From positions 1 through 42,527 of the forward strand of contig DOFP01000007.1 of the NCBI GenBank assembly GCA_003523645.1: a DNA stretch of 42,527 nt, read 5' to 3'. Under the pieces are notes generated by a model. It searched no databases. It was not told the origin of the DNA and was given only the letters and a program-made list of their open reading frames with translations. The position numbers and the translations under genes are program-made. Each line of letters opens with the position of its first letter. Position 1 is the first letter of the stretch. Source of the DNA: Candidatus Uhrbacteria bacterium (GTDB lineage Bacteria > Patescibacteriota > Patescibacteriia > UBA9934 > GWF2-40-263). Below, one piece after another: positions 8,297 to 32,161 of this stretch.

Positions 8297-9313
8297 GTGT
8301 CGCGAGGAGGAACTGATTATGACCGTGACGTGTCGGATCGGTCCATGCGAACGAGTAGTGGCTTTACCACAGTCGCAGAGGAAGCGATGGCAACACGACA
8401 ATGGTTCGACCCTGCTCTGTTGCCAAAAGGGAGAGTGATCAAGACACTTTGCAAGAGCCCGATCGCTCTTCCATTTGATGTAACCGGATCCTTGGGGGGT
8501 CTCGCCAAGATCACCTATGACAAAATGCCCATGACTGCCGGAGAACTCAAGAAGCGTTCCTATCTTCAGGACTGTCAGATTTGTCCGATCGCGGTCGGAG
8601 ATGTTGTTTCCGACAGAGGACCGCTCCAGATCGGGGAATTCGTCGTTCCGCGGGAACTTGACAGTTATCTTCAACGCCTTTGGCTCGAAGGGGGAGGTGG
8701 TCGTCAAGGATATGAGTCCTATGAATTCGTCGCCTATTTCCTTGCATACCATTGCGATATTCCAGAGGCCGACACACCATTCGTCATTTTTATAGGTGAT
8801 GAACGGTTCCGGGAGGACCTTCATAGAAATGCGCTTCAAGCGTATTTCGGAGGTATTGAGCATGAAGACATGAATGCTTTCAAAGTGTTTGCCGACCTCA
8901 GGAGAAAGTTCAAGAACAATGTATTTCTGATTCACCGATATTACGATGACATGTGTACGGATAAAGAAGTCATTGACCAGTGGTCAGGAGTTCTTGGAGC
9001 CGATCACGTGATCAATCTCGGACACGGAAACGACACAGCTGTTGCAGACGTCATGCTCGGCATCTTTGCCCTGATGGGCGGGACACGAACTCTGGATCAG
9101 TATCTGGAAGATATGCGGGAACGCGGTCAGGATCAGACGCGTCTTGCCTTTGTTCGTAGGGCTCTGTCTGTTCTGAAGCCGCCGTCCTCAATCCAGAAAA
9201 AAGAGGAAGATGCAGATCAGTCGCAGCAGGTATTGGCGGCGGAAGAGAAGCAGAAAAGTCCGTCCCGCAAGAAGGGAAAATCCGTCTTCGATTCCTCGAA
9301 TTGGGACGTCTGA
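8297..9313 (+). CDS. von Willebrand factor A (vWA/MIDAS) domain protein, locus-1 copy
   Basis: GTG start after AAGGAAGGAG. MIDAS-like DVTGSLGG, GGGG loop and YEFVAYFLAYH. Collinear with 27442-28452 (DVSGSMGF, GGGGG, PEYALYWAATH). Confidence 0.75.
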   Translation: MSRGGTDYDRDVSDRSMRTSSGFTTVAEEAMATRQWFDPALLPKGRVIKTLCKSPIALPFDVTGSLGGLAKITYDKMPMTAGELKKRSYLQDCQICPIAVGDVVSDRGPLQIGEFVVPRELDSYLQRLWLEGGGGRQGYESYEFVAYFLAYHCDIPEADTPFVIFIGDERFREDLHRNALQAYFGGIEHEDMNAFKVFADLRRKFKNNVFLIHRYYDDMCTDKEVIDQWSGVLGADHVINLGHGNDTAVADVMLGIFALMGGTRTLDQYLEDMRERGQDQTRLAFVRRALSVLKPPSSIQKKEEDADQSQQVLAAEEKQKSPSRKKGKSVFDSSNWDV

Positions 9314-9416: not shown

Positions 9417-10811
9417 ATGAATCATATCATTGGTCGCGGGATTGGACTCGGAGATGAGGGAAAGGGAAAGATCATAGCGGCCATCGGACGGAAACTTGGC
9501 ATTCGGACAGGTATACGCGACACTGGAGCCAATCAAGCCGTTCATCACCTTCCAGGACCTAATGGTATTTGGCATGGGTTTGCGCAATTTTGTTCCCATT
9601 CCTTTCAGAATGACGCGTGGACATTCCTCGCGCGGGGTATGGCGGTTGAGCTTGAGGCACTTGTGCGTGAGGCGGAAGTGCTGGTGACCAAAGGAGTCGT
9701 TGATCCTATTCGACGGGTTGTGATCGATGACCAGTGTGCGATTGTGACACCCATGCACAAAATGGTCGGACGTATGGAGGAATTGATTCGTAGGCGTGGT
9801 TCGTGCGGTATGGGCGCAGGAAGAACAATTCGCGATCGGGAGGCAGGAAAAGGAATTCGAGTTTCACATGTTCTGGACGGATCCGTTCGAGATCGGTTGC
9901 GGGAAATGGTGACAGAAACCATAGCCGAGGCGCGACAGTTACTTGAACAACATCCGACCGATGATATGCGTGCTGAATTTTCCTATTTCATTCATCGGTG
10001 TAATCCGGACATGCTGGCCGAAACCTATGAACATATTCTTGCGTATTCTGGCGTACTGGTAGACCATGATCGTCGGTTATTTCTGCAGCGCATCCAGGAG
10101 GAACGGGTATTTTTCGAGGGGGCACATGGAACTTTGTTGGATGTCCGGTTCGGATTCCATCCGTATGTGACTCAGTCCAAGACCACGTGGCAACATATCG
10201 AGGAGCTTGTCAGTCCTCAAATATCCTTGAAAAAACTTGGGATCTCGAGGTCTTATAGTCTTCGATATGGCATGGGACCTCTCATAACAAAAGACCCTAT
10301 CCTTTCGAAACATCTTCAGGATTCACGTAATCCTGAAGATTCTTGGCAGGGGTCAGTACACATTGGATGGCTTGACCTTCCGATGTGGAGATATGGAATT
10401 CTGTTAAACGATCGACTCGATGGTATTGCCCTTACTTGTCTTGACCACCTAACTGGGTATCCAAGCATTCGAGTATGTACGTCCTATTTTTATGATGGAA
10501 AGCAGGACTCGCTCGATACATTCTTTGAATGGACGCGCACCAAACAAGGAACAGCCGAGATCCTCGGTTTCAAGAAGCCAGAACTACCATTCGAGAGCGA
10601 AGAACGCACGCGGATTCTTCATCAATGTAGGCCTGGTAAGTGGATTGAATTTCCGGGGTGGAACAAGGACATCCGACAAGTAAGACGGGTGCAAGATCTA
10701 CCGAAAGCCGCCCGCAACTATGTTGACTTTCTTGAAAGCTGGGCAGGATTTGCTCTGCCCATTCGGATCATTTCGGTTGGTCCGGATGTTGAAAGCTCAA
10801 TTTTTATCTGA
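9417..10811 (+). CDS. Adenylosuccinate synthetase (PurA)-family protein, highly divergent, locus-1 copy
   Basis: RBS GGAGGaaagATG. PurA P-loop GLGDEGKGKI, GANQAVHH (cf. GGHNAGHT), FFEGAHGTLLDVRFGFHPYVTQSKTT (cf. PurA [25 protein letters not shown]), SYSLRYGMGPLITKD (cf. AYSTRVGAGPFPTEL), LTCLDHL (cf. LTKLDVL). Confidence 0.8.
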   Translation: MNHIIGRGIGLGDEGKGKIIAAIGRKLGIRTGIRDTGANQAVHHLPGPNGIWHGFAQFCSHSFQNDAWTFLARGMAVELEALVREAEVLVTKGVVDPIRRVVIDDQCAIVTPMHKMVGRMEELIRRRGSCGMGAGRTIRDREAGKGIRVSHVLDGSVRDRLREMVTETIAEARQLLEQHPTDDMRAEFSYFIHRCNPDMLAETYEHILAYSGVLVDHDRRLFLQRIQEERVFFEGAHGTLLDVRFGFHPYVTQSKTTWQHIEELVSPQISLKKLGISRSYSLRYGMGPLITKDPILSKHLQDSRNPEDSWQGSVHIGWLDLPMWRYGILLNDRLDGIALTCLDHLTGYPSIRVCTSYFYDGKQDSLDTFFEWTRTKQGTAEILGFKKPELPFESEERTRILHQCRPGKWIEFPGWNKDIRQVRRVQDLPKAARNYVDFLESWAGFALPIRIISVGPDVESSIFI

Positions 10812-10877: not shown

Positions 10878-11411
10878 TTAGGGTCCGGCACAGAGCGGGG
10901 GTTCTTGATTCCGGAATTTGGTACGCAATATGAGAAGATTTTTTTTCTCCTGCTCATATGCTTCCAATTCCACGGGATCTGTCGGTAGAACAAAGATGAT
11001 TGTGTTGCAGTGTTGACAATACTGGTACGTTTTTTTCTCTCTCGGATCCGCAAGAAGCGGTCGTGAGAAACTTATGACATTGTAGACGAGCTCCTCGAGT
11101 TCGTTTCTCCAGGATTCTGGGATCATCGTGTTTTGTTGGAAGGAAGCGAACCCGCAGACAGGACACTGTTCAGGGCAGACATCCGGGTTCTGGAACGAAG
11201 TAAGAGCTTGTTCCCGAATTTGTTCCGGTGTTTTTCCACGATGTTCAGCTTCGAAGGATAGGGAGCATTTATTACATCCCAACCGTTCGAGAACTTCATA
11301 AGAATACCCTGTTTGCGTGCATCGGGTATTCCAGATTCCGATGAGCCGTCCTTCTTTACATGAAGGACAAGAATGGTTCATTAGTAAACCTTTCAATTGT
11401 TCCAGACTCAT
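10878..11411 (-). CDS. Cys-rich zinc-ribbon protein (177 aa), function unknown
   Basis: RBS AGGAGGaaacccc-ATG. Multiple CxxC pairs (CPSCKEG, CNKCS, CPEQCPVCG, CQHCN). Confidence 0.6.
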   Translation of the reverse strand: MSLEQLKGLLMNHSCPSCKEGRLIGIWNTRCTQTGYSYEVLERLGCNKCSLSFEAEHRGKTPEQIREQALTSFQNPDVCPEQCPVCGFASFQQNTMIPESWRNELEELVYNVISFSRPLLADPREKKTYQYCQHCNTIIFVLPTDPVELEAYEQEKKNLLILRTKFRNQEPPLCAGP

Positions 11412-19931: not shown

Positions 19932-20984
19932 ATGACCCTTGAATCGTTTGAAATTATTCGTATCCTCCTTCTCACAACTGCAGCGTTTGTCATGGCGGTT
20001 GTGTGGACACCAGCGCTCACCCACGTTCTCTTTAAATATAAAATGGGAAAACGTATTCGTGATGAAGCATCTGCTCCTATTTTTTCAAAATTGCATGCAA
20101 AAAAAGCTGGAACACCAACCATGGGTGGTGTGCTTATTTGGGTGACCCTTCTTGTATTAGCTCTTGTGCTTTGGCAAGCGCATACATGGTGGCCTGAGAC
20201 ATGGATTGGTCAGTTAAATTTTCTGTCTCGAACACAAACCTTGCTTCCACTGGGAGCACTTGTGGCATCTGCACTTGTGGGGCTTGTGGATGATTATTTT
20301 AATGTGCGTGGAATCGGATCCAACAATGGCGGTCTTCGCATGGGACATCGACTTTTGATTTATACAGCCATTGCTGTTGTCGGTGCTTTGTGGTTTGCGT
20401 TTAAACTTCATTGGGATCTTTTGCATGTGCCGTTTATCGGTGATTTCAATATCGGGTGGTGGTACATTCCTTTTTTTCTTTTAGTGATTGTATCCACTTC
20501 TTTTTCTGTGAATGAAACAGATGGTCTTGATGGATTGGCTGGAGGAACACTTCTTACTTCTTTTGGTGCATACGCAGTGATCGCATTTTCTCAAGGCCGA
20601 TATGACCTTGCCGTATTCTGTGGAGTGATTCTTGGTGGATTGCTCGCCTTTCTTTGGTTTAATATTCCGCCAGCACGATTTATCATGGGAGATACGGGAG
20701 CAATGTCATTGGGAGTGACTCTTGGTATTGTGGCATTGCTCACAAATACCGCGTTTCTTCTTCCGGTGATTGGAAGTATTTTTGTGTTGGAATCGCTTTC
20801 TGTAATCATTCAGCTATTTTGGAAAAAAGTGTTTAAACGAAAATGGATTCTCTCATCTCCATTTCATCATCATCTGGAAGCCATCGGATGGCCTGAATCG
20901 AAAATTGTAATGCGTTCCTGGGTTATCTCTATGATTTCTGCAAGTCTTGGTTTAGCGTTTGTTTTGCTTGACGCGCTCAAATAA
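19932..20984 (+). CDS. mraY: Phospho-N-acetylmuramoyl-pentapeptide transferase
   Basis: 350-aa polytopic protein with NETDGLDGLAGG and IMGDTGAMSLG motifs typical of MraY. Confidence 0.95.
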   Translation: MTLESFEIIRILLLTTAAFVMAVVWTPALTHVLFKYKMGKRIRDEASAPIFSKLHAKKAGTPTMGGVLIWVTLLVLALVLWQAHTWWPETWIGQLNFLSRTQTLLPLGALVASALVGLVDDYFNVRGIGSNNGGLRMGHRLLIYTAIAVVGALWFAFKLHWDLLHVPFIGDFNIGWWYIPFFLLVIVSTSFSVNETDGLDGLAGGTLLTSFGAYAVIAFSQGRYDLAVFCGVILGGLLAFLWFNIPPARFIMGDTGAMSLGVTLGIVALLTNTAFLLPVIGSIFVLESLSVIIQLFWKKVFKRKWILSSPFHHHLEAIGWPESKIVMRSWVISMISASLGLAFVLLDALK

Positions 20985-20987
20985 TGT

Positions 20988-22121
20988 ATGGCTGATCACA
21001 AACCAACGCATGCTATGGATTATACATTTCTCGGAATGGTCGGAGTGATGCTTTTGTTTGGTTTCATGATGCTCGCATCCGCTTCTGGTCCTATGAGTTA
21101 TGTTCTTTCTAAAACGAATGACAGTTTGTATCTGGTGAAACATCAATTATTTTTTGGATTAATTCCCGGTCTTGTCGGTCTTTTTGTTATGAGTCGGATT
21201 CCGTATCAGTTTTGGAAAAAACATGCCTGGGGATTTTTATTGGTGAGTGTAGGACTCCTTATCCTTGTTTTTATTCCGGGAATTCAGGCGGATTTCGGCA
21301 CGTCGCATAGCTGGATTTCGATTGGAAATCTTTTTTCTCTTCAGCCGGCTGAGATTGTAAAATTGACGTTTCTTTTTTATCTTGCCGGTTGGCTCGAATC
21401 ACGAGGAACACACGGAGTCAAAGATTTCCATGGGGGATTTCTTCCATTTATTTGTATTCTTGGTGTGATTATGTTTCTTTTGATTCTTCAGCCGGATATT
21501 GGAACAATGTCTATTATTGTTGCCATTTCCATGATTGTTTATTTTACGGCTGGAGCACGTTTTCTACATCTTTCCGGTTTGGTTGCGGCTGGGATTGGAC
21601 TTTTAACGTTTCTTATCACCACATCCAAATACCGTCAGGATCGTCTCATGACTTTGCTTCACCCGGAGCTTGATCCGTCTGGAGCCGGATATCATATTAA
21701 CCAAGCCCTCTTAGCTCTTGGTTCTGGCGGATTTTTTGGGTTAGGATACGGACATTCGCGACAAAAATTTCAATATTTGCCTGAAGTATCTGGAGATTCC
21801 ATTTTTGCTGTGATCGGAGAAGAGATGGGATTTTTTATGGCAGTCATTCTCCTTGCTGTATTTCTCTTTTTTTTCTGGCGAGCGCTTCGAATTGCGCGTA
21901 GTGCACCTGATTCATTTGGAAAGTATGTTACGATCGGAGTTGCCTCTTGGATTCTTGTTCAGGCGTTTGTGAATATTGGTTCTATGGTTGGACTTCTTCC
22001 AATTACAGGAGTAACCCTTCCTTTTATCAGTTATGGAGGTACGTCCCTTGCTGTTTCTTTAGCTGCCATTGGTGTTGTGTTGAATATTTCAAAATATGCC
22101 GGAAAAACAGCCAAATTTTAA
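20988..22121 (+). CDS. ftsW: SEDS-family peptidoglycan polymerase FtsW/RodA
   Basis: 377-aa polytopic protein. Motifs QPAEIVKL, GLLPITGVTLPFISYGGTSL. Confidence 0.9.
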   Translation: MADHKPTHAMDYTFLGMVGVMLLFGFMMLASASGPMSYVLSKTNDSLYLVKHQLFFGLIPGLVGLFVMSRIPYQFWKKHAWGFLLVSVGLLILVFIPGIQADFGTSHSWISIGNLFSLQPAEIVKLTFLFYLAGWLESRGTHGVKDFHGGFLPFICILGVIMFLLILQPDIGTMSIIVAISMIVYFTAGARFLHLSGLVAAGIGLLTFLITTSKYRQDRLMTLLHPELDPSGAGYHINQALLALGSGGFFGLGYGHSRQKFQYLPEVSGDSIFAVIGEEMGFFMAVILLAVFLFFFWRALRIARSAPDSFGKYVTIGVASWILVQAFVNIGSMVGLLPITGVTLPFISYGGTSLAVSLAAIGVVLNISKYAGKTAKF

Positions 22122-23196
22122 TCGTACAAAAAAAATATTGTTTGCAGGAGGAGGAACCCTTGGACCTGTTACACCTTTATTGGCTGTGGCTGAGGCATGG
22201 CGTAAACGTGATGCATTAGTGGATATGGTTTGGGTTGGAACTCCACATGGTCCTGAACAGGAAGTTGTGAATAAAGCAGGTATTCGGTTTCTCACCTTAC
22301 TTGTGGCTCGTGTTCCTCGTTATCCAACATGGGAATGGATATGGCTTCCATTCCGTTTTCTTTTTGTCTTGTTTCAATCTGTTCAACTATTACGTCGAGA
22401 ACGGCCGGATGTGATTGGTTCGGCAGGCGGATACACAGCAGTACCAATTGTGATGGCTGGATGGCTCTTGAGAATTCCTGCATGGATTCATCAACAAGAT
22501 GTTCCTCCGGCTCTGACAAACAGGATCATGGCTCCATTTGCGCGGTGGATTACCGTTGCATGGAAAATATCCTTGAAAGATTTTTCTTCTTCTAAAACAT
22601 GCTGGATAGGAAATCCTGTGCGTTCAAGTATACGGGAAGGGTCAAAAGAAAAGGCAAGAATGTTTTTTGATCTTGATGCCGCATATCCAACGATTCTTGT
22701 TTTGGGTGGTGGGGGAGGATCTGCGTGGTTAAATGAGAAAATGTCAGAAATTGGATCTTCACTTGTGACGCATACAAATGTGATTCATATAACTGGAAAA
22801 GGAAAAATGCGTGTAAATTTGCAAACGTTTGGGAAGAGATACGTAGCACGTGAATTGCTTACAAACGAAATGCCTCACGCGTTGGCAATGGCTGATGTGG
22901 TTGTGTGTCGTGCTGGAATGGGAACAATCAGTGAACTTGTTGCATGGAAAAAAACAGCCATCATGATTCCGCTTCCGCATTCGCCGCAAGAGGCAAATAT
23001 GGAGCAGATTTATGCGAGTCATGCAGCTATTCTTTTGTCTCAAGAACAGACAACCGCAGATAGATTACAAGAAAAAATTATATGGCTTCTTGGACAAAAA
23101 AAAGAACGTGAGCAATTGGGAGAACAGATGGGGAATATATTACCTGTTGATGCGGCAGATCGAATCGTGGATCAGTTAATTCAATTGACAGAATAA
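22096..23196 (+). CDS. murG: UDP-N-acetylglucosamine--lipid I transferase
   Basis: FAGGGTLGPVTPLLAVAEA (cf. GGTGGHVFPALAVA) and VVCRAGMGTISEL (cf. VVSRAGALTVSE). Confidence 0.9.
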   Translation: MPEKQPNFNRTKKILFAGGGTLGPVTPLLAVAEAWRKRDALVDMVWVGTPHGPEQEVVNKAGIRFLTLLVARVPRYPTWEWIWLPFRFLFVLFQSVQLLRRERPDVIGSAGGYTAVPIVMAGWLLRIPAWIHQQDVPPALTNRIMAPFARWITVAWKISLKDFSSSKTCWIGNPVRSSIREGSKEKARMFFDLDAAYPTILVLGGGGGSAWLNEKMSEIGSSLVTHTNVIHITGKGKMRVNLQTFGKRYVARELLTNEMPHALAMADVVVCRAGMGTISELVAWKKTAIMIPLPHSPQEANMEQIYASHAAILLSQEQTTADRLQEKIIWLLGQKKEREQLGEQMGNILPVDAADRIVDQLIQLTE

Positions 23197-23198
23197 AA

Positions 23199-23230
23199 AA
23201 AGACCCGGAATAAACCCCAGGTCTTTTTTC
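23199..23230 (+). terminator. Rho-independent terminator after murG
   Basis: AAGACC...GGTCTT hairpin followed by TTTTTT. Confidence 0.6.
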
Positions 23231-23236
23231 GAAATT

Positions 23237-23389
23237 ATTCTGCGTCCTCTTCGTTGACATCCATATCTTCTTCATCGCCCATATCATCTATGTCATCATC
23301 TGTGTCCATTTCGGCGCATTCGTCGCATTTGGTTTCGTCATTGATTTCGACGTCTTCGGCGTGGCAGACGGAACAAACTCCCATCATAC
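23237..23389 (-). CDS. Possible small acidic CxxC protein (50 aa): MMGVCSVCHAEDVEINDETKCDECAEMDTDDDIDDMGDEEDMDVNEEDAE
   Basis: Uninterrupted minus-strand ORF between murG and tRNA-Lys. No clear RBS and below the ORF-track length cutoff. Confidence 0.2.
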
Positions 23390-23560
23390 GTGCTTAGATT
23401 CATTTACGAATAATGCGAGGTCCACAAAAGAGTGGATCCTAACGGGCATTAGTATAACTGACGTGTTTTTATCGTCAATATAGTTGTGGATAACGTTTTT
23501 TTTCACCGCATAATCACTTGCTTTTTTTTATTTGGTGGTATACGATTTTCGCACTTTCGC

Positions 23561-23635
23561 GCGCTGGTAGCTCAGTGGTAGAGCGGGGGCCTTTTAAGCC
23601 CAAGGTCGTGGGTCCGATCCCCACCCAGCGCACCA
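23561..23635 (+). tRNA. tRNA-Lys (anticodon TTT), CCA encoded
   Basis: Cloverleaf by hand: acceptor GCGCTGG/CCAGCGC, D-arm GCTC-agtggta-GAGC, anticodon loop cTTTTaa, T-arm GTGGG-tccgatc-CCCAC. Unusual C at T-loop position 55 and G-A at pair 27-43. Confidence 0.85.
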
Positions 23636-23781
23636 AAAAAACACCGCTAAATAAGCGATGTTTTTTTGTAAATTGACCAATCGAGTGAGTACTTTAGTTT
23701 AAAAAAAAAACGAAACTCTCCGCAAAATTGAGGTTTTTTGATATGCTGTATATATAATGCTTTCGTTTATTTTGAACATCT

Positions 23782-24759
23782 ATGGATGGAAAAAATGTAT
23801 TTGGAATAGAAGGAGAAGTGAGAAGTAAGACCATTACTAAATATGAAAAAGATCAAAATCCTGAACGAGTAGAACAGATCAATGAAGGAGTTGAACATCC
23901 AAAATTAGTTTCATTTGATTTAGAAGGAGAAAAAGTTCAAATCGAATACATTGAAGTTCCTGCGAAAAAACAAGAACAACATGAAGGAGAAAAAGAAAAA
24001 GTTATTATTCTTTTTCCTGGTTTTTGTGCTTCCTATATTCCGTATGTGGGTGCGGTAAAAGAATTGGCTGGATACATGGGAAATTATCGTATCATTTGTC
24101 TATCCCCATTGGACTCAGGAAAAAGTTCGTCTTTGAAAGAAAGTCATCTGCAAAAAATGGGCGAGGTATACCGTGCGGCATTTCAGAAATTGGGAATTGA
24201 TTCAGCTCATACGGAAGCAACCGTGATTGGTCATTCACGATCAGATATTATTGCATTGGAACTTGCGCGGTCTGTGCCAGAACTTGTGAAAAATATTGCG
24301 CTTGTGAATGGAATTACCGGGAAAAAAGAAGGTCTTGCAGGACTTACGTATGATTTTACTGAACACACATTTTTAGATATTACTCCGGAAAGAATGAAAG
24401 GACTTTTCAAAGGGGAAGTGGAAGCAGCGAGAAATTATTTGAATCAAACAAGAGACTTTTTGAGAAACATGTTGAAACCCACTCACATATTGAACCAATT
24501 TAGCTCATTGAATGAACGAAAAAAAGTGAATGTAAAGGAATTGCTTTCTCAATTGAAATCTAATGTCCTTATTTTGAGCGGAACCGGAGATATTACGGAT
24601 TATAAAGAAACACGAGAAAATATTTATGAAAATTTGCCAGAGAATATCCAGGCGGAACATCATTTGGAAATAGGTGGATTGCATGATGAGATCAATGCGC
24701 ATCCAGAAGGATTTGTATTGAAGTTTCGCAAATGGATGGAGTCAGTGGAGAAGGTATGA
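23782..24759 (+). CDS. Alpha/beta-hydrolase-fold protein (putative)
   Basis: Nucleophile-elbow-like VIGHSRSD and hydrophobic beta strands (VIILFPGF). Start uncertain. Confidence 0.5.
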   Translation: MDGKNVFGIEGEVRSKTITKYEKDQNPERVEQINEGVEHPKLVSFDLEGEKVQIEYIEVPAKKQEQHEGEKEKVIILFPGFCASYIPYVGAVKELAGYMGNYRIICLSPLDSGKSSSLKESHLQKMGEVYRAAFQKLGIDSAHTEATVIGHSRSDIIALELARSVPELVKNIALVNGITGKKEGLAGLTYDFTEHTFLDITPERMKGLFKGEVEAARNYLNQTRDFLRNMLKPTHILNQFSSLNERKKVNVKELLSQLKSNVLILSGTGDITDYKETRENIYENLPENIQAEHHLEIGGLHDEINAHPEGFVLKFRKWMESVEKV

Positions 24760-24892
24760 TTGAATAGATGTAGAAAATATTTAATATGTCAAATAAACTT
24801 GACATTTTTTTATTTTTTTGATAACATAAGGACATTCATCGTCCTTTTTTGGTAGATATAGCCACAATATGTGGCTTTCACGAGGAGGAAAA

Positions 24893-25363
24893 ATGAGTTT
24901 GAACCGGATGGTCGCAAACGCGCGGCAAAGAGAGCGAAACAACGAACGCCGATCCCGTTGTCGGGAAGCGATCGATGAATGTCTACGGGCTGTCCGCGGG
25001 GTGGATGGGGCAACCTTCGATGATTTCCACTGGATTCAGAATCGTATCACGGATCCGGTCGTCTCGGCTGCTCTGAGGGATGAAAATGTTTCCCTTCAGG
25101 AGTATGTCCAGTGGGAAGCGGCTTACAAAGCCGATACTCCGAATCGGAATGCACGAGAACTCGCGAGAAAATGCGAGGAAGCACAATCCGCTTTGGACGA
25201 CTTTCGTAAATCCGCGGATTGGTTTGATCAAGAGGATTTGATTTCAATTCTGGAGTATCGTCACTTGGTTGGTGACGAGGCCTTCTGTATTGAATTTCAT
25301 ATTTCTCAAGACGAACTTGAGAAAATTGATAACTGGGAGAATAAGGATTTGGAAGATTGGTGA
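24893..25363 (+). CDS. Hypothetical protein (156 aa)
   Basis: ATG after GAGGAGGaaaa. Charged helical protein. Confidence 0.5.
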   Translation: MSLNRMVANARQRERNNERRSRCREAIDECLRAVRGVDGATFDDFHWIQNRITDPVVSAALRDENVSLQEYVQWEAAYKADTPNRNARELARKCEEAQSALDDFRKSADWFDQEDLISILEYRHLVGDEAFCIEFHISQDELEKIDNWENKDLEDW

Positions 25364-25455
25364 TCTTCCAAAAAAATTCGCGCACATGCGGGACGGAGAG
25401 CGTGTATACGCTCTAAGTCCTGTGTGTGTTTTTTTTGTTTATACGTCTAAAAATC

Positions 25456-25483
25456 TTGACAGGTAGGTTGTTTTTGTTATACT
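25456..25483 (+). promoter_or_regulatory. Putative sigma70-type promoter about 210 nt upstream of the locus-2 operon
   Basis: TTGACA, 16-nt spacer, TATACT. A second TATAAT lies at 25492. Confidence 0.45.
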
Positions 25484-25695
25484 TTATGTCTATAATACAT
25501 TTACTATTTTTTATTTCAAGAAACTTGATGTCATTTTGACTAAAAATGGCTTGACTGACAACAAATTTCATGATAGGTTCTTCGGTCTTTCTTTTCGCCC
25601 CAAAATTCGTCAATAATTGTTGGCAGTTTTAGGGAGGGAATAAATCTCTCACCAAATGGTGATCTTTCACAATTAAAACAAAAAAAGGAGAAATC

Positions 25696-27423
25696 ATGAC
25701 TCTTGATCCTAAGATGTATCTGTCAATTTCTGTGCCTGAAAATTTGAGGAATGGACTCATTGCTATGATGGTTCGTCATTTCCTCTTGAAACAGGTCATC
25801 GGAAACGAATACGTAGCATCTCAAGCCGCACGTGAAATTATGACCGCTTTGTACGGTTTTCATTCAACGTTCGCTCAGATTCAAAGCACGTCAAAAGAAG
25901 ATTTTGAAAAAGCAACTCAAAAAGCCGGTATTTCTGGTATCCCTGTGGCTGGTTTCAAAGAACTCCCGGACGTGTGGCATCTGGTGAATCCTGAAACTCC
26001 GATGTGTTCCCATTGTGGGGATGTACCGCTTTCGAATAATGGATCCTTCATTCAGAATCTGGTTGTTGGGTCTAAGTGTCCCTTCTGTCATGTGGGAGAG
26101 TTTGTTCTCATTCCTATGACTTTGAAAAAGATTACTTGGACTGACGGCAGACTTGTGGATCCGTCTATGAGAGAAGATTATCAGTTCATCACAGGAGAAC
26201 AAATTCCTCTGGATGATGACTTGATTATGGATTGGGTCAATGTTCGTATTCAGCCAGATCTTAAACAAGCATTGGTAGAAGCACAGGTTTCCATATATGG
26301 ATTTCTTGCTTATGCCAACTTGGTTCGCAACGCGTTCAGCGGTCGCAAGGAATCCGAGGAAGGATTGTGCAAGGCTGTTGGTTGGTTGCTTGAGGATCCG
26401 GAAGTATGCAACCTGCCGGTTTCTATTATGGCTGAAGAGGCTATGAAAGCCCGGCAGTATGTGGAAGAAAGAGAAGTGACGAACATGCCACGGATTTTGA
26501 AGTCCACGAGCGTTATCCTTCCTGTATCTTCTGTTGTGGCAACTGTTGTGAATCCGTTTGCTCCGATGAATGAACGAGATCCAACATCCTATATACGGAC
26601 TCGTCTACTCGCATCTGGAGATATGGCTGATATTTATCTTGGCCATCTCAACGATCCATTCGCGGACAAACAGGAGACAGTGATCATCAAGGTGTACCGA
26701 GATGCAGAAGACACTGGGATGGCTCGTAACGAGGCACAAACTTTGGAGCGTTTATACGGAAGTGCTGAGACTGAGAAAGCTGAAGGTTTCCTTCATGGAT
26801 TTCCCAAGGTTCTTGCATACGGACCAGTAACGGATTCTGACGGAGTTGTGCACGAATGTAATGTGTTTTCGTACACTCCTGGCTACATGACTTTGGAAGA
26901 AGTTTGTCGTGACGATCATCGGGTCGATATTCGAACAGGTGTGTGGATGTTCAACCGTATTCTCGAAATGCTTGGTTGGATTCACCAGCACGGCATTATT
27001 CTTGGATCGGTTCTTCCATCCCATATCCTTGCCCAGCTTGATGAACACTGGATCGTTTTTCTTGGATGGCCCTATGCAGTTCATGAGCCAGAGAAAACCG
27101 GTGCACGCATTCTCGCGGTCAGTCAGGCGTACGAGTCTTTTTATCCGGAAAGTGTGTTTCGAAAGAAACCGCCGTCTCCGGCAATGGATATCTCGATGGC
27201 TGCGCGGTGTGTGATCCAGGTTGTAGGTGGAGATCCGATCACGGGGAAATTGCCTCGTGGAGAAGATCCGCTATTTGAGACGATTTTGAAGACAGCTGCC
27301 GGTCTTCATGGTTCTGTTCCGTTCAAGAACGCTTGGCAGTTGCATGAGGCGTTCGGAGAAGTTGCGCGTTCCGTTTTAGGGCCGCGTAAGTTTCATCCAT
27401 CCCGGGTGTTCAAAAAAACCTGA
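25696..27423 (+). CDS. Zinc-ribbon plus pseudokinase-domain protein (575 aa), locus-2 copy of the kinase-fold component
   Basis: RBS AAAGGAGaaatcATG. N-terminal region has CSHCG...CPFCH. C-terminal protein-kinase fold: VIIKVY (beta3 K), EAQTLERL (alphaC E), HQHGIILGSVLPSHIL (HRD Asp lost), FLGWPYA (DFG lost). Collinear with 7364-8167. Confidence 0.75.
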   Translation: MTLDPKMYLSISVPENLRNGLIAMMVRHFLLKQVIGNEYVASQAAREIMTALYGFHSTFAQIQSTSKEDFEKATQKAGISGIPVAGFKELPDVWHLVNPETPMCSHCGDVPLSNNGSFIQNLVVGSKCPFCHVGEFVLIPMTLKKITWTDGRLVDPSMREDYQFITGEQIPLDDDLIMDWVNVRIQPDLKQALVEAQVSIYGFLAYANLVRNAFSGRKESEEGLCKAVGWLLEDPEVCNLPVSIMAEEAMKARQYVEEREVTNMPRILKSTSVILPVSSVVATVVNPFAPMNERDPTSYIRTRLLASGDMADIYLGHLNDPFADKQETVIIKVYRDAEDTGMARNEAQTLERLYGSAETEKAEGFLHGFPKVLAYGPVTDSDGVVHECNVFSYTPGYMTLEEVCRDDHRVDIRTGVWMFNRILEMLGWIHQHGIILGSVLPSHILAQLDEHWIVFLGWPYAVHEPEKTGARILAVSQAYESFYPESVFRKKPPSPAMDISMAARCVIQVVGGDPITGKLPRGEDPLFETILKTAAGLHGSVPFKNAWQLHEAFGEVARSVLGPRKFHPSRVFKKT

Positions 27424-27441
27424 AAAAAAGGAGAGATTGAA

Positions 27442-28452
27442 ATGGCAAAAGGATGGAATACATCGACCCATCAAGAGGTTGAGAAGAAGATGCAGCAGGT
27501 CAAGGAAACAGGCGGAAGTGTGCCAAATGATGGGACAAATCCATACCTGGTTCATCCGCTTATGGATCCTTTGAAGATCAAGAGTGGCATAAGGGAAAGC
27601 TGTGATAGTGCGGAGCAGCTTTTATCGCTTGCCATTATTTTTCTCATGGATGTGAGTGGTTCCATGGGGTTTGTTCCTGAACAACTCAGAACTCGCTATC
27701 TTTGTGAGCTCATGAAGTTTTTGCTTGGCGGGAAACTGGTTGTGGATCCACAGATCATGTTCGCCGCATTTGCGGACGTTGCAGATCGGTGCTTCTTGCA
27801 GGTTGGACAGTTCGAACTCGGAACTGAAATGCACGGGGATCTTTCTCGTTTGCGTATTGGTGGTGGCGGAGGAAGTGCAATGGCGCACGAAGCGCCGGAA
27901 TATGCTCTCTATTGGGCAGCGACCCATACCAAGATTGATTGCTTCGAAAAGCGAAGAAAAAAAGGAATTCTCGTCATAACGACCGATGAAATGCCGAATG
28001 ATAAACTCAAGAAAGAGTATGTCAGGCGTTTTATTGGAGATGGATTAGAAAACGACTTCACGATCGAACAGGTCATTGCACTTGTCCGACAGAAGTACGA
28101 CATTTTCTGTCTGTACACCCATACAGGTTCGTATGGCAGCATGGACAAAGAGATCCGAGCCAGGTGGGTGGAGATCCTCGGATCCGAATATGTTTTCGAC
28201 TTTTACCAGTCTGAAGATATTTGTGCTCTGGTCGGATCCATTATTGGATTGCGAGAGGAAATGGTGAATAATCTAGATGATCTCCGTAATCGTCTCCGTG
28301 GTCTTGAGACTTCGGAGGAAACCATTACTCGGGTGTTGCGGACGGTTTATGGATACGCGACTCTTCTTGGAAGAGGTCAGGTCAATGGGGTGACCCAGAA
28401 GGCTGACGCTCCCGTTGAGAAATCGAAAACAACCGGCAATCGTCGGTTGTGA
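27442..28452 (+). CDS. vWA/MIDAS domain protein, locus-2 copy
   Basis: RBS AAAGGAGAGattgaaATG. Canonical MIDAS IIFLMDVSGSMGF, GGGGGS loop, ILVITTDEMPND. Confidence 0.85.
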   Translation: MAKGWNTSTHQEVEKKMQQVKETGGSVPNDGTNPYLVHPLMDPLKIKSGIRESCDSAEQLLSLAIIFLMDVSGSMGFVPEQLRTRYLCELMKFLLGGKLVVDPQIMFAAFADVADRCFLQVGQFELGTEMHGDLSRLRIGGGGGSAMAHEAPEYALYWAATHTKIDCFEKRRKKGILVITTDEMPNDKLKKEYVRRFIGDGLENDFTIEQVIALVRQKYDIFCLYTHTGSYGSMDKEIRARWVEILGSEYVFDFYQSEDICALVGSIIGLREEMVNNLDDLRNRLRGLETSEETITRVLRTVYGYATLLGRGQVNGVTQKADAPVEKSKTTGNRRL

Positions 28453-28525
28453 TTCGCAGGTAAAAACATGAGGAGGCCTGCATACTCGCAGGTCTCCTTT
28501 TTACATCTTTTATATTGGAGGAATC

Positions 28526-29959
28526 ATGAACGATTTAGAGTTTGGTCGAACATCCTACCTGATTCGCGATTTGATATTTGGAGATAGTGGAAAGGGAACT
28601 ATCGGAGAGTTTCTCACATGGTGGCTTGATCAATTCGCGCCAATTTGGTCAAAGGTTCATACAGTCATTCGGACCGAGGGTGGTCATCAGGCCATACACA
28701 ACAATATCCTTCCCGATGGACGACATCATGGATTTTCCCAGTTTGGGTCGGGAAGTCTCACGTCTCCGATTTGGACACACCATGCAAAGGGAATGATGGT
28801 CGAGCCACTGCACGCACTTGACGAGGGAAAGGATTTGCAGCATTTGGGCGTGCGGGATATCTTCGGCCGTTTGACTGTGAGTCGCGATGTCCGAATAGTG
28901 ACGCCGTTTCAACAGGCAGCCAACCGTCTTCGCGAATATGCTCGAGGAGTCGGACGGCACGGAAGTTGCGGAAAAGGGATTGGTGAAACTGCATCTGATG
29001 CACTTGCGATCGGAACCGATGCTCTTTATGCAAGAGATCTGATGGATTCTGCAATCCTTCGGGAAAAGTTGTCTCAGATTCAGGCATACAAGCTGGCTCA
29101 GCTCGCAGATCTGATATATCGATTTGGAGATGACAAAGCAATCTCGGCAGAGATCGACTGGCTCACAAATACGGCAGCTTCATCGATTCTCGTCGCGTAT
29201 CTTGGCGAGTTCGTCGAACGCGTGAAGATCGTGGAGAATGCACACATTGGTGGAATTCTTTCCAGGCCGGGTTCGGTGATTTTTGAGGGAGCGCAAGGAG
29301 TTCTCATTGATGAGTGGCGCGGGTTTCACCCGTACACGACATGGAGTACCTGTACGTTTGACAACGCGCTCGAACTTCTCCGCGAACACCAGTATGACGG
29401 CAGGATTGTCCGGATCGGAGTTGTCCGCGCGTATGCAACACGACACGGTGCCGGACCATTTATGACAGAAGATCCATTTCTTACCAATGCACTTCCGGAC
29501 ACATATAACGTGACGGATGTTTGGCAACAGACGTTCCGTGTCGGCTGGTTCGATGCTGTGGCTGCTCGATACGCAATTGCAGCATGTGGTCAGGTAGATG
29601 CATTGGCTGTCACTTGTCTTGATCGAATGCGTGATTTATCTCAGTGGCTCATCTGCACCGGATATGAATTATCTGAAGATGATTCGAATGCGGCAAAGTT
29701 TTTTGAACTGGATCCGCAAAATCCGAGGATTGCGCGTAATATTCGGCTTGGACCTCACAAAGATCTCGTTTATCAAGAGACCTTGACTGAGCAGTTGAAG
29801 CGTGTGAAGCCGATATATGAAGTCTCTGCCAATGCAGCAGACTTTGGCCAGCGTGCAGAGCAGCATCTTGCACGAATCGAATCTGAACTCGGCGTGCCGG
29901 TCGCTATCACATCCTACGGTCCAACCGTTCTGGACAAGCGAATGGTACGCCCCGTTTAA
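28526..29959 (+). CDS. Adenylosuccinate synthetase (PurA)-family protein, highly divergent, locus-2 copy
   Basis: RBS GGAGGaatcATG. Eroded P-loop FGDSGKGTIG, GGHQAIHN, GSCGKGIGET, IFEGAQGVLIDEWRGFHPYTTWSTCT, RAYATRHGAGPFMTED, VTCLDRM. Matches PurA motifs in order. Confidence 0.8.
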   Translation: MNDLEFGRTSYLIRDLIFGDSGKGTIGEFLTWWLDQFAPIWSKVHTVIRTEGGHQAIHNNILPDGRHHGFSQFGSGSLTSPIWTHHAKGMMVEPLHALDEGKDLQHLGVRDIFGRLTVSRDVRIVTPFQQAANRLREYARGVGRHGSCGKGIGETASDALAIGTDALYARDLMDSAILREKLSQIQAYKLAQLADLIYRFGDDKAISAEIDWLTNTAASSILVAYLGEFVERVKIVENAHIGGILSRPGSVIFEGAQGVLIDEWRGFHPYTTWSTCTFDNALELLREHQYDGRIVRIGVVRAYATRHGAGPFMTEDPFLTNALPDTYNVTDVWQQTFRVGWFDAVAARYAIAACGQVDALAVTCLDRMRDLSQWLICTGYELSEDDSNAAKFFELDPQNPRIARNIRLGPHKDLVYQETLTEQLKRVKPIYEVSANAADFGQRAEQHLARIESELGVPVAITSYGPTVLDKRMVRPV

Positions 29960-30012
29960 TAAGGGTTCGAATAAAATCTTGAGGAATCGTTAAAAACGGT
30001 TCCTTTTTGTAT

Positions 30013-30039
30013 AAAAAAACCGCTGCGGAGAAGCAGCGG
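30013..30039 (-). terminator. Rho-independent terminator for the minus-strand gene 30050-30808
   Basis: On the minus strand: CCGCTGC-ttctcc-GCAGCGG followed by TTTTTTT. Confidence 0.7.
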
Positions 30040-30049
30040 AAACGAGTTC

Positions 30050-30808
30050 TTATTTCGGAAAAGGAAGAGCATAAACAGCATCTTCCAAATATTGTTTTAC
30101 TCGATCAATTTCCAAATCACCTTGGAGAGTCCGGAGTTCTGATTCCGTATCGATATTCACTCTTGGAAAGAGTTTTCCAAAAGGTTTTATACGCTCGATT
30201 GTCTTCAATCCGAGTTTACCTGCGATTCCGATGCCGATGTTGGGGAATCGACTCCGGACTTCAGAGATATATGGACCAAGTTTTTTGATATCGAGCATTT
30301 TTCCCTTTGACCCATCTAGATCAAGGAGAATATCTGTCGGAGCATCGCCGTACTCTCCGACTTTTTGTGCGAGTTGTACAGGATCACTATGCACCTGTTC
30401 AAACGCATGATGTCCGACTTGGAGAATAAGTCGGAAGTGAGGAAATCGATTTCGATAGGCACTGAGAACAGTTGGGCGTGGCCAAGCAATGTTCATCTGG
30501 AAACCTTCGAAGTGTGGTCCAGCCAGAGTCGTGATCCGACACATTTGAAGAAACAAGGTGTCAAGATCTGGTGTCGTATAATGAACAAGGTTGAGTGTGG
30601 CTGGATCGTCAGGAAAAAGTTCGACCAGACGATGAATCAGTGGATACTTTTTTGGGTTTCCCGGTGGTTTCCCAAACAATGTTTTCATGTTCGCGAGCAC
30701 TCCGATCATGAGCCGTCGTTTTGTCTCAAGTGTTTTGAAGTGTTTAAGCACTTGGTTTACTTCTGTCCGACTCATAAAGCCGGTGAAGCCGATGTATGGA
30801 GTTTTCAT
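30050..30808 (-). CDS. TIM-barrel protein resembling phosphoribosylanthranilate isomerase (TrpF-like), tentative
   Basis: RBS AGGAGGtatca-ATG. IGFTGF (cf. KICGIT), ILLDLDGSKGKMLD (cf. LLD..GGSGKTFDW), C-terminal VNIDTESE...VKQYLEDA resembles the PRAI C-terminus. Weak call. Confidence 0.4.
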   Translation of the reverse strand: MKTPYIGFTGFMSRTEVNQVLKHFKTLETKRRLMIGVLANMKTLFGKPPGNPKKYPLIHRLVELFPDDPATLNLVHYTTPDLDTLFLQMCRITTLAGPHFEGFQMNIAWPRPTVLSAYRNRFPHFRLILQVGHHAFEQVHSDPVQLAQKVGEYGDAPTDILLDLDGSKGKMLDIKKLGPYISEVRSRFPNIGIGIAGKLGLKTIERIKPFGKLFPRVNIDTESELRTLQGDLEIDRVKQYLEDAVYALPFPK

Positions 30809-30905
30809 TGATACCTCCTTTTATGGTTGAAGTTTCTAGAATGATCCTAACTTGTTTAAAAAGGATGTCAACAATTTTTGCTTGTCGGATGCGTTTGTTT
30901 TGCTT

Positions 30906-31502
30906 ATGATGGGGTATGTTCACATTTTTATGAAACTTCCTTTGATTTTTCGAAACATGCAAAAACAGTTTGTGAATGCTCAACAAGGGCGTTCAGCTGT
31001 GATACATGCATCAAATGATGCACTTAATCGTTCAAAACGTGCGATTTTTGCATTACATCGCGGAAACGCACAAACAGCGACAACACTGTTAGAAGAGGCT
31101 AAAATCTGTTTTCAAGATGCAGAACGACGATTTCGCACTAGTCCGGAATTAAAACATGAAGGTTCTTATCAGGCAGCACGTGAAGAGTATACGGAAGCAA
31201 TGATATTTGCGGATTATCTTCGTGGTGGACGCTTTTCCATATCAGAGCCACGGATTGCAGATCCGCAGGTGTTTCTTGCAGGTCTTTCTGATGCCACAGG
31301 TGAGATTGTTCGGTATGCTATTCGTCAAGCAACGCATGGAAATCGAGAAGAAGTCACACGTGCTCACGAGACCATTGAAATGATTATCCATTTTCTTTTG
31401 GAACTTGATTTGACCGGATACCTTCGTCAGAAGTTTGATCAAGGAAAAAAGAATTTGCGTACCATAGAAGATATCCTTTACGACTTAAGTCTCAAATCCT
31501 AA
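30906..31502 (+). CDS. Translin-family protein (putative)
   Basis: All-helical ~198-aa protein. C-terminus LRQKFDQGKKNLRTIEDILYDLSLKS matches the translin signature (human LRKRYDGLKYDVKKVEEVVYDLSI). Start uncertain (ORF track begins at a TTG at 30852). Confidence 0.55.
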   Translation: MMGYVHIFMKLPLIFRNMQKQFVNAQQGRSAVIHASNDALNRSKRAIFALHRGNAQTATTLLEEAKICFQDAERRFRTSPELKHEGSYQAAREEYTEAMIFADYLRGGRFSISEPRIADPQVFLAGLSDATGEIVRYAIRQATHGNREEVTRAHETIEMIIHFLLELDLTGYLRQKFDQGKKNLRTIEDILYDLSLKS

Positions 31503-31507
31503 TTGTT

Positions 31508-32161
31508 ATGCCATTTACTCCGTCATCCTGGTATTTTTTCCGGGACGAATTCGACCTGTTGGAGGAGGAGATGGACGCGATTCTTTATAAGCATGAACGA
31601 ACACGTGATACATCCATTCGTGCCATGGAAGAAGAAATTATTGAGGAGCAGACACGTGTGGAAGGTCGTTACGAAGAGGAGATTGCCCGATTTTTTGTCC
31701 ACAACAAAGAGGATGGAGCGGAAGAGGATCATGTGCTGGAAGATGATCGTCCTCTGCGGGAAATGCTTAGAGAACATTGCGTTCGTGATCCATTATATCA
31801 ACGGGCATTTTTTTGGGCGACAAATCTTTTTCAATGGGCAGGTCGGGAATATGGGAAACAGACATCAAAAAATCGCGACTTGTTTGAGATTTATTTGAAT
31901 GTTTGTTTGGTTCCGGTAAAGATTGCTTGTGCGCGTGCGGATGAAGCATGGGAAGATCCAAAAACATTGCCTGTTGTTGCAAAGGAATACGAATCCGCTC
32001 TTTTTTATCTTGTAAGAATGATTGATGCCTTGGCCCGACTCGAACGAAAAATAAAATCTCTTTCTCCATCTTTTATTCAGGAAGCGCGTTTTCTTCAACG
32101 TGAACTCGGACGGTTGCATGCACAATGTGTTCGGCAACAAAAAGATCGTTGGAATATTTGA
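31508..32161 (+). CDS. Hypothetical acidic helical protein (217 aa)
   Basis: ORF directly downstream of the translin-like gene (6-nt gap). No motifs recognised. Confidence 0.5.
   Translation: MPFTPSSWYFFRDEFDLLEEEMDAILYKHERTRDTSIRAMEEEIIEEQTRVEGRYEEEIARFFVHNKEDGAEEDHVLEDDRPLREMLREHCVRDPLYQRAFFWATNLFQWAGREYGKQTSKNRDLFEIYLNVCLVPVKIACARADEAWEDPKTLPVVAKEYESALFYLVRMIDALARLERKIKSLSPSFIQEARFLQRELGRLHAQCVRQQKDRWNI

Follow-up and report, generated by a model that had tools for sequence, protein, structure and literature searches.

What does a kinase-fold protein do once the residues that make a kinase have gone? Is it an enzyme of another kind, a gene in decay, or a protein that is kept for work other than catalysis? 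The question is posed by K2, one of two kinase-fold proteins encoded in a 42,527-nucleotide stretch of Candidatus Uhrbacteria DNA (contig DOFP01000007.1; the whole stretch that was analysed is called the window here). Candidatus Uhrbacteria is a candidate-phyla-radiation lineage from groundwater, with protein records from several assemblies. By its gene content the 42.5-kb window is bacterial chromosome and not phage (pyrG/CTP synthase, rplI/ribosomal protein L9, mraY, ftsW and murG; further genes encode a Mur ligase and GTP cyclohydrolase II, and there are three tRNAs). It holds two three-gene cassettes, both on the + strand and each encoding a kinase-fold protein, a von Willebrand factor A (vWA)-type protein and a protein resembling adenylosuccinate synthetase (PurA-like): K1, V1 and A1 at locus 1, and K2, V2 and A2 at locus 2 (Table 1). 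All six open reading frames (ORFs) are intact and full length. An earlier note, made from the sequence of this DNA, had described a graded loss of catalytic motifs in K1 and K2 and suggested that both may be pseudokinases, serving their partners as scaffolds or sensors, or that K1 may be an atypical kinase of low activity. Our best overall explanation, to which we give a probability of about 0.6, is that K2 is a maintained pseudokinase and that the kinase-fold protein acts as a non-catalytic adaptor in a vWA/PurA-like module.

Although a Pfam scan of K2 gives no match, and a word-indexed protein search returns K2 itself only, several lines of evidence place it in the kinase fold. Its C-terminal ~280 residues match PHROG 3043 'kinase' (4.4e-21), and the profile of the long-form family to which it belongs matches CK2, CDK6 and StkP at 1e-12 to 1e-15. 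The earlier note had asked for a comparison of structures. The AlphaFold2 (AF2) model of K2, built on 28 homologues with a mean predicted local distance difference test score (pLDDT) of 86.4, indeed matches VRK1, PknA and PknB in a Foldseek search of the PDB (E ~3e-9, probability 1.00, with target-normalised template modelling (TM) scores of 0.58-0.74).

The catalytic positions of K2 were placed by aligning it to 217 family members and to K1. The beta3 Lys and the alphaC Glu are kept. The His and the Asp of the HRD motif, the catalytic-loop Asn and the DFG Asp are all absent together, and the glycine loop (SGDMADIY) has a single Gly and fails GxGxxG. The loss of the HRD Asp and the DFG Asp that had been read at locus 2 is therefore borne out, the family alignment placing LGS and GWP at the two motifs; the 'ILG' reported earlier was off register by one residue, which leaves the conclusion unaffected. 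Leu in place of the HRD His is found in K2 alone among the 217 proteins, 214 of which retain the His. As aligned, K2 is the most stripped member of its family.

That family is large. Searched exhaustively with phmmer, 1.84 billion cluster representatives yielded 1723 relatives of K2 at E<=1e-3 and 1123 at E<=1e-10. We tallied the catalytic positions in 217 members (150 phmmer relatives and 67 copies from genome loci) aligned to the family profile. The residues that anchor ATP and the fold are nearly always there: Lys at the beta3 position in 96%, Glu in alphaC in 98% and Asp in alphaF in 99.5%. The HRD motif keeps its His in 99%, has Gly for Arg in 90% and has lost its Asp almost everywhere, Ala standing there in 87%, Ser in 5% and Asp itself in no more than 5 of 217; further members have Gly, Asn, Cys or Arg. 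The catalytic-loop Asn is His in 90%, giving the consensus vHGAvLPxHvL, and at the DFG motif the Asp is kept in 69% and replaced by Gly in 26%, while Trp stands for Phe in 91%. Also nearly invariant are the single Gly of the glycine loop (>90%; the next residue is Asp in ~70%), a His six residues ahead of the DFG position (98%) and two short motifs, YPxE and, at the C-terminus, GPxxF, so that the family can be written as GD...K...E...HGA-x-L-P-x-H...[D/G]-W. A few rare members have fuller motifs, HRD with DW in P0130 and HGD or HTD in L055 and L016, and on that ground the ancestor was presumably a normal kinase.

Such frequencies are what one expects of a pseudokinase that has been maintained and probably still binds nucleotide, and not of a decaying gene. 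The alignments and the model together show K2 to be a genuine, evolutionarily maintained pseudokinase, predicted to keep the Lys-Glu ATP anchor without a catalytic base or metal ligands. Its family is a large and unnamed one of bacteria and phages, with no Pfam or NCBIfam model.

The alternative that survives best, unlikely as we think it, reads the same conservation the other way. In this alternative the whole HGA family, K2 included, would be an unconventional enzyme that phosphorylates a small molecule or nucleotide, or catalyses another reaction such as AMPylation. Its site would be built from the Lys-Glu pair, the His at the Asn position, the pre-DFG His and the Gly-Asp of the glycine loop, and the enzyme would act on the vWA protein or on whatever the PurA-like protein takes as its substrate. 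The strength with which these non-canonical residues and the Trp are kept, alongside Lys, Glu and most of the DFG Asp, is what such an enzyme would leave behind; the few members with HRD or HGD/HTD fit as well, and SelO, SidJ, CASK and WNK were all initially called inactive. However, at the base position the residues other than the prevalent Ala vary freely, as they would where constraint has been lifted, one member in four has Gly for the DFG Asp, only one Gly is left in the glycine loop, and K2 is without all four of the HRD His, HRD Asp, Asn and DFG Asp.

The two kinds of family member differ in what precedes the kinase fold. Typical short forms have 320-390 amino acids (aa), and the ~90 residues ahead of the fold are a J domain, with the consensus A..PEDvFG.L.G...YR.LA...HPD...A.eAF..L and an exact HPD in ~67% of 130 short-form members. 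Pfam DnaJ scores these regions, including that of Ewok gp260, at 19-26 bits, just below the 27.8-bit cut-off; it gives 54.7 bits, with HPD, to a phage protein of the clade to which K1 belongs (L089). The J domain is absent from K1 and K2 themselves. K2 and ~25 other long forms carry in its place a 268-aa domain, which, modelled alone from 25 sequences, reaches a pLDDT of 94.9 and a predicted TM score (pTM) of 0.86. It resembles no known fold and has no structural relative, and no stand-alone gene for it was found at short-form loci. The CxxC...CxxC zinc ribbon that the earlier note had seen in the K2 N-terminus is present (C104/C107...C128/C131) and conserved among long forms: across 28 sequences C104, C107 and C128 never vary, and C131 is kept in at least 90%.

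K1 is another matter. NCBI protein models give it 267 and 289 aa. Compared residue by residue with AMPK alpha2, it has HGDIKPEH where AMPK has HRDLKPEN, and VGFGV where AMPK has ADFGL. It keeps Lys63, Glu77, Asp154 and an APE-like PPE motif, and it is without both metal ligands, the Asn having become His159 and the DFG Asp Gly172. Its glycine loop (RGTNSTIY) also has a single Gly and fails GxGxxG. This alignment agrees with the earlier description of locus 1 (a degenerate glycine loop, GFG for DFG, HGD and the beta3 Lys kept) and adds the change of Asn to His159, which had been overlooked. The closest relatives of K1, at <=39% identity, are two metagenomic proteins and an ORF of the 485-kb uncultured phage LR745208. 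They combine an N-terminal J domain with an apparently active kinase domain (GGFGK, HGDIKPQN, DFG); the nearest homologues read HGDIKPQN or HGDIKPRN, with DFG in P0272, P0273 and L089. Upstream of K1 we found no remnant of a J domain, only in-frame stops and an unrelated 66-aa coiled-coil ORF. On the evidence of these alignments K1 comes from a clade that is normally intact and bears a J domain, but K1 itself has neither that domain nor a proper glycine loop, and its Asn and DFG Asp are gone.

The loss is not conserved near K1, as its three closest relatives are intact and only one distant relative, P0187, is alike. P0187, in which a long-form N-terminal domain is joined to a K1-like kinase domain, has the same HGD, PEH and VGF trio, with GFS at the DFG position. 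Since the K1 state is found again there, it is a state that recurs. Could K1 nonetheless be a working kinase, of low activity or independent of Mg, so that only K2 is a pseudokinase? We regard this as rather improbable. The retained Asp154, Lys63, Glu77 and PPE and the Pkinase score of 96.9 bits would suit such an enzyme, as would the presence of every catalytic residue in its closest relatives, and CASK functions without a DFG Asp. Set against these are the loss of both metal ligands, a glycine loop of GTNST where the clade has GGFGK, the missing J domain of the clade, and the trio shared with P0187, which suggests a recurrent non-catalytic state; moreover, A1 is an outlier at Q224 and V273 (see below), so the entire locus-1 cassette is atypical. 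The pseudokinase reading has good support at locus 2 and is plausible at locus 1, and K1 and K2 are most likely both non-catalytic adaptors. The earlier suggestion that both may be pseudokinases is supported for K2, whose losses are family-wide; K1 too lacks the residues needed, though the homologue alignment, which the same note had called for, shows its closest homologues to be intact.

If the kinase-fold proteins are adaptors, what might they adapt? The partners described beside both kinase-fold genes are indeed there, as matches to PHROG 2971 and Adenylsucc_synt (Table 1). V1 and V2 share 24% identity, and V1 is nearest to the vWA genes that lie behind K1-clade kinases in L089 and L083. 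Their family has 324 detectable homologues, several of them named 'VWA domain-containing protein' by NCBI, and its conserved motifs are DVTGSM, LQVGQFES, EGGGG and GDE. The D-V-[TS]-G-S segment, which corresponds to the DxSxS of the metal-ion-dependent adhesion site (MIDAS), is invariant in 20 aligned members. All the Pfam matches are sub-threshold and all fall on this segment (VWA_2 E=0.11, DUF444 0.0087 at best, CobT_C 0.12, VWA_CoxE 0.21), the weak DUF444 match being seen in 6 of the 20 partners. An hhalign comparison with the MIDAS segment of E. coli ViaA gives a probability of 56% over 41 columns, and a search of PDB sequences with the vWA profile found no match. The vWA assignment is moderately supported by these motifs and profiles.

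The termini of the vWA-type proteins are themselves conserved. A Met-Gly start is found in 116 of 119 members (P0002-P0121; MG[HSGYQ]G.YS), and the C-terminus of most members is ...RL, or else ...RLF or ...RMF with one further residue; V2 starts with MAKG and ends with NRRL. The C-terminal ...RL is also found in K1-clade kinases. Tandem vWA-type genes stand between the kinase-like and the PurA-like gene in L010 (3998-5928) and L024 (5677-7788) (Polyangia).

The third protein has the fold of an adenylosuccinate synthetase, and the question is whether it still is one. NCBIfam purA (TIGR00184 / NF002223) scores A1 at 178 bits and A2 at 131-151 bits, the cut-offs being 395-402. We aligned A1, A2 and 68 relatives, 70 proteins in all, to E. 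coli PurA. In that enzyme we take Thr300, Thr301, Arg303 and Arg305 to hold L-aspartate, Asn38 and Thr129 to hold the phosphate of inosine monophosphate (IMP), Asp13 and His41 to be catalytic and Asp333 to specify guanine. G12, D13, G15, K16, G17, H41 and D333 are invariant in 70/70, and Q224 is retained in 69/70. By contrast, N38Q, T129C, T300W, T301Q and the deletion of R303 are found in every protein, R305F in 64/70 (V in A1) and V273H in 69/70. A1, which has a canonical GDEGKGK P-loop, is atypical as the sole member of the 70 with changes at Q224 (Q224H) and V273 (V273Y). What the earlier note meant by 'PurA-like' therefore stands as regards the fold and the GTP site, and does not extend to the aspartate site, which has gone in 70/70. 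The GTP-dependent activation chemistry has probably been kept, and the amine substrate, perhaps the nucleotide too, changed.

We rejected true PurA as the identity of these proteins because their scores are below the purA cut-offs and the aspartate loop is replaced in 70/70. We rejected PurZ because Asp13 is kept in 70/70 and the score is far below the NCBIfam cut-off (NF038379: 33.5 and 25.6 bits against 300). In PurZ, Asp13 is changed to Ser in all phage members (PMC12884076). A1 and A2 share with PurA, PurZ and PurZ0 the PF00709 fold, the P-loop GDxGKG, Asp13, His41 and Asp333, and A2 alone shares Gln224. They differ from PurA in that the aspartate-binding loop has been replaced and the IMP-phosphate ligands changed throughout the PurA-like family, and from PurZ in that Asp13 is invariant and the companion genes DatZ, MazZ and DpoZ are absent. 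A third PurA fragment, to which a 26-nt repeat at 29798 and 30777 had seemed to point, was rejected for having no protein similarity.

Another reading is that A1 and A2 are the ordinary adenylosuccinate synthetases of the organism and that their neighbours are unrelated or merely regulatory. NCBI does call both 'adenylosuccinate synthetase', their Pfam Adenylsucc_synt matches are strong, and candidate-phyla-radiation bacteria rely on nucleotide salvage. We consider this very improbable, given the universal changes at N38, T129 and the aspartate loop, with scores less than half of the equivalog cut-offs. There are also two divergent copies, each tied to a kinase-fold and a vWA gene, and the trio occurs in large-genome organisms in which a canonical purA is inferred.

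How are the two cassettes of the window related? Their proteins are only 24-30% identical, and the similarity of K1 to K2 is weak (29 bits, E=1e-4) and limited to ~100 residues around the catalytic loop, so we rejected a recent duplication. Both cassettes have a G+C content of 0.45-0.51, against 0.36-0.44 in their flanks. As far as these comparisons reach, they are separate acquisitions or ancient paralogues and no single decay series. The 'graded loss' within one genome accordingly does not hold, K1 and K2 belonging to different clades; a gradient of motif loss exists only across the superfamily, from the intact K1 clade through the intermediate K1 and P0187 to the HGA family and K2, the most stripped. 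The motif states of K1 and K2 are identical across assemblies (protein records KKR86..., KKR98..., HBO99..., SRR3989339), in records that include allelic variants differing elsewhere in the two proteins, which excludes sequencing error as their source. The rule offered with the earlier note, that intact homologues would betray such an error, fails on K1: its relatives are intact, yet its state is reproduced in independent assemblies and in P0187. That we are looking at dying pseudogenes or mistakes of metagenome assembly, without function, is scarcely credible. In its favour, the source genome is a metagenome assembly, the nearest homologues of K1 have intact motifs, K1 has lost its J domain and A1 has outlier substitutions. 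Against it, the six ORFs are intact and full length, the motif states are repeated among assemblies and alleles, K2 shares its state with a family of >1700 cluster representatives in which many positions are conserved, and the K2 N-terminal domain reaches a pLDDT of 95 from 25 sequences, a confidence that needs coherent covariation.

The trio recurs as a unit. The order kinase-like, vWA, PurA-like on one strand was found in 66 of 80 loci fetched, and a scan of one genome per species gave at least 578 loci with the vWA partner, in Chloroflexota, Actinomycetota, Myxococcota, Planctomycetota, Acidobacteriota, Verrucomicrobiota and Oxalobacteraceae. The same order recurs beside another long-form homologue on a metagenomic contig (L092) and in >200 Bixzunavirus (cluster C1) mycobacteriophages, for example Ewok gp260, 261 and 263, where the annotations of the three read serine/threonine kinase, hypothetical protein and PurA-like adenylosuccinate synthetase. 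Vibrio phage Va1 has a vWA and PurA-like pair, and the module is also found in culturable Massilia, Duganella, Streptomyces and Actinoplanes. A sister module, at 3776-6754 of L089 (phage LR745208) and 6001-8940 of L083, has a J-domain kinase with all catalytic motifs followed by a vWA gene; its third gene, instead of a PurA-like protein, encodes one that resembles the pyruvate-kinase barrel (PF00224, 31-32 bits; cut-off 30). The window holds two divergent copies of a widespread module that is undescribed in the literature searched.

One neighbour recurs at a subset of loci. At 43 Actinomycetota loci and at one Pseudomonadota locus from a metagenome-assembled genome (L020), within L013-L082, the gene immediately ahead of the module, and on its strand, encodes an NrtR-type regulator (NUDIX 7e-19 plus NrtR winged helix 4e-13). 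It lies ~700-1000 bp upstream of the kinase-like gene, or, in ~6 of those loci, stands right next to the vWA gene with nothing kinase-like intervening. This neighbour is a hint that ADP-ribose, which arises when NAD is broken down, might control the module. Other apparent neighbours were rejected, a 525-aa cluster being acyl-CoA dehydrogenase and the remaining clusters alternative-frame artefacts of high-GC DNA, and the conserved neighbour clusters included no Hsp70 gene.

We propose that the kinase-fold protein would serve, without phosphorylation, as an adaptor or switch that binds nucleotide or partner proteins. In most family members the J domain would recruit Hsp70/DnaK, and in K2 the zinc-ribbon domain would recruit some other partner. 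The kinase-fold protein would hold, assemble or gate the vWA protein and the PurA-like enzyme, the sole predicted catalyst of the module, in which GTP probably serves to activate a purine-like oxo group for transfer to an amine other than aspartate. With its higher G+C, its scatter over phyla that are not related and its occurrence in large phages as well, the module looks like a mobile accessory one, which might act in stress, virus-host conflict or nucleotide handling, outside core purine synthesis. A role in conflict is one that we infer from distribution alone.

Several findings weigh against this proposal. The conserved Lys/Glu, two His and Gly-Asp of the glycine loop in the K2 family could signal an unconventional catalytic site. 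About 8 of 80 loci have the vWA and PurA-like genes without a detectable kinase-like gene, so the adaptor is not always required. K2 has no J domain, so a link to Hsp70 does not apply to it directly. The vWA call rests on motifs, sub-threshold Pfam matches and NCBI names. The flanks of the two window cassettes contain no known defence genes and no hallmarks of mobile elements. A full-text literature search found no description of the module, most subscription journals lying outside that search.

A bolder version of the proposal would make the trio a new kind of Hsp70-linked, nucleotide-modifying system of conflict or stress, common to bacteria and large phages, in which the PurA-like enzyme joins a purine nucleotide, at the cost of GTP, to another amine, for example a protein N-terminus. 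Here an aromatic pocket (W300, Q301, H273, F305) would replace the aspartate pocket, and removal of Met from the Met-Gly start of the vWA protein (116/119) would leave a glycine with a free amine. What results would be either an adduct of protein and nucleotide linked at N6 or a signalling nucleotide of a new kind, with the dead kinase as a nucleotide-sensing adaptor, connected to DnaK through the J domain or, in the long form of Uhrbacteria, to another partner through the zinc ribbon. We offer this as a long shot.

How does the module compare with systems already known? STRADalpha, HER3, JAK JH2 and the RNase L pseudokinase domain are nucleotide-binding pseudokinases of eukaryotes. Like them, the K2 family has a kinase fold in which the Lys-Glu anchor is kept, the base or the metal ligands are lost family-wide and a role as scaffold or switch is presumed. 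Unlike them, it is borne by bacteria and phages, has its own signature (HGA, PxH, [D/G]W and the GD of the glycine loop), is fused to a J or zinc-ribbon domain and is encoded with vWA and PurA-like proteins. Eukaryotic GAK/auxilin-2 has a kinase and a J domain in one polypeptide. The wider family likewise unites a kinase fold and an Hsp70-recruiting J domain in one chain; it differs in that the domain order is reversed, the kinase is mostly inactive and the hosts are prokaryotes or phages, and K1 and K2 have no J domain.

A kinase-fold gene also adjoins a vWA/MIDAS gene in the TerY-P triad (TerY vWA, PP2C, Ser/Thr kinase) and in the PrkA/YeaG-YeaH (DUF444)-SpoVR/YcgB operon. These and the present module are all three-gene units of poorly understood, stress-related function. 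In the present module, however, the third gene is PurA-like (pyruvate-kinase-barrel-like in the K1 clade) and not PP2C or SpoVR, and the kinase partner, in contrast to PrkA, is mostly catalytically dead, with a J domain and no AAA+ module. Neither cassette, nor the neighbouring window ORFs scanned, has a match to PP2C, PrkA or SpoVR. K1 resembles PD-T4-6, a single-gene Ser/Thr-kinase anti-phage defence in PADLOC, in matching its models at up to 3e-27; yet the match covers generic kinase subdomains (aa 77-230), K1 is without the metal ligands and K2 reaches only 3e-4. In PADLOC-DB v2 the vWA and PurA-like proteins have no match and K1 has only generic kinase matches (PD-T4-6, mad6, MkoA). A known defence system was rejected, since no PADLOC system had all its components matched.

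The surroundings of the cassettes give some further observations. Because the terminator-like hairpin in locus 1 lies between K1 and V1, K1 may be transcribed apart from its partners. The strong hairpin ahead of K2 is probably a terminator; it surfaced only as a spurious sub-threshold microRNA match. No known RNA or riboswitch was found upstream of either cassette, no convincing att-like repeats surround locus 2 beside tRNA-Lys, and a megablast of 20000-32000 against a phage collection found no match. Each cassette is followed by a convergent ORF; a 177-aa ORF after locus 1 has many CxxC pairs and a non-significant match (E=0.04) to the zinc-ribbon region of K2. Two further genes of the window belong to the Major Vault Protein and Translin families, which are typical of eukaryotes and unusual in a candidate-phyla-radiation bacterium.

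Table 1. Positions of the two cassettes, their sequence features and neighbouring elements in the window
Feature	Positions	Strand	Basis or remark
ORF of 66 aa, coiled-coil-like, MIPNHMTPEQMEELRLEYERIGERM...	7100-7297	+	directly upstream of K1, other frame; no J domain
Locus 1 (K1; V1; A1)	7298-8167; 8297-9313; 9417-10811	+	
K1, 289 aa (or 267 aa from Met at 7364)	7298-8167	+	Pfam Pkinase 1.7e-27, 96.9 bits
K1 degenerate glycine loop ARGTNSTIYRG	7418-7450	+	homologues AEGGFGKTYRG or AEGAMGRTYVA
K1 catalytic loop H152-G153-D154-IKPE-H159	7751-7774	+	Asp kept; Asn changed to His
K1 G172-F173-G174 at DFG position	7811-7819	+	codons GGA TTC GGC
Terminator-like hairpin between K1 and V1	8180-8204	+	11-bp stem, then T run
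V1	8297-9313	+	PHROG 2971 4.9e-27
V1 MIDAS-like DVTGSL	8477-8494	+	
A1, 464 aa	9417-10811	+	Adenylsucc_synt 4.2e-67
A1 P-loop GDEGKGK	9447-9470	+	
A1 remodelled aspartate loop	10341-10370	+	
Convergent ORF after locus 1	10878-11411	-	no Pfam match
Strong hairpin	25373-25436		after 164-aa ORF, upstream of K2
Locus 2 (K2; V2; A2)	25696-27423; 27442-28452; 28526-29959	+	
K2, 575-aa predicted long-form pseudokinase	25696-27423	+	stop-free ORF; PHROG 3043; AF2
K2 N-terminal domain, aa 1-268	25696-26499	+	helical, with embedded zinc ribbon
K2 four-Cys zinc ribbon C104-x2-C107...C128-x2-C131	26005-26088	+	long-form alignment
K2 kinase-fold domain, aa ~296-570	26581-27405	+	Foldseek, profile matches
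K2 beta3 Lys332 (VAIK Lys), kept	26689-26691	+	Lys in 208/217 family members
K2 alphaC Glu346, kept	26731-26733	+	Glu in 212/217
K2 catalytic-loop equivalent IILGSVLPSHIL	26995-27030	+	HRD changed to L436-G437-S438; Asn changed to H443
K2 DFG equivalent G457-W458-P459	27064-27072	+	family alignment
V2, 336 aa	27442-28452	+	PHROG 2971 2.9e-35
V2 MIDAS-like DVSGSM	27649-27666	+	
A2, 477 aa	28526-29959	+	Adenylsucc_synt (PF00709) 1.1e-56
A2 P-loop	28577-28600	+	
A2 remodelled aspartate loop	29519-29548	+	
Convergent ORF after locus 2	30050-30808	-	no Pfam match
Translin-family protein	30852-31502	+	5.6e-18; just past locus 2
Protein of 872 aa	38439-41057	+	Major Vault Protein shoulder domain PF11978 6.6e-26, plus vault repeat

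If the pseudokinase-adaptor reading is true, bacteria and phages would share a large family of pseudokinases, mostly fused to a J domain. There would be a PurA paralogue that no longer binds aspartate in the known way, and a fixed three-gene unit would link the two through a vWA protein. The public labels 'serine/threonine kinase', 'hypothetical protein' and 'adenylosuccinate synthetase' would then mislead metabolic reconstruction. A 'purA' call alters the purine pathway that is reconstructed for an organism, most critically in candidate-phyla-radiation bacteria. The occurrence of the module in >200 mycobacteriophages with a tractable host, and in culturable bacteria, makes its function directly testable.

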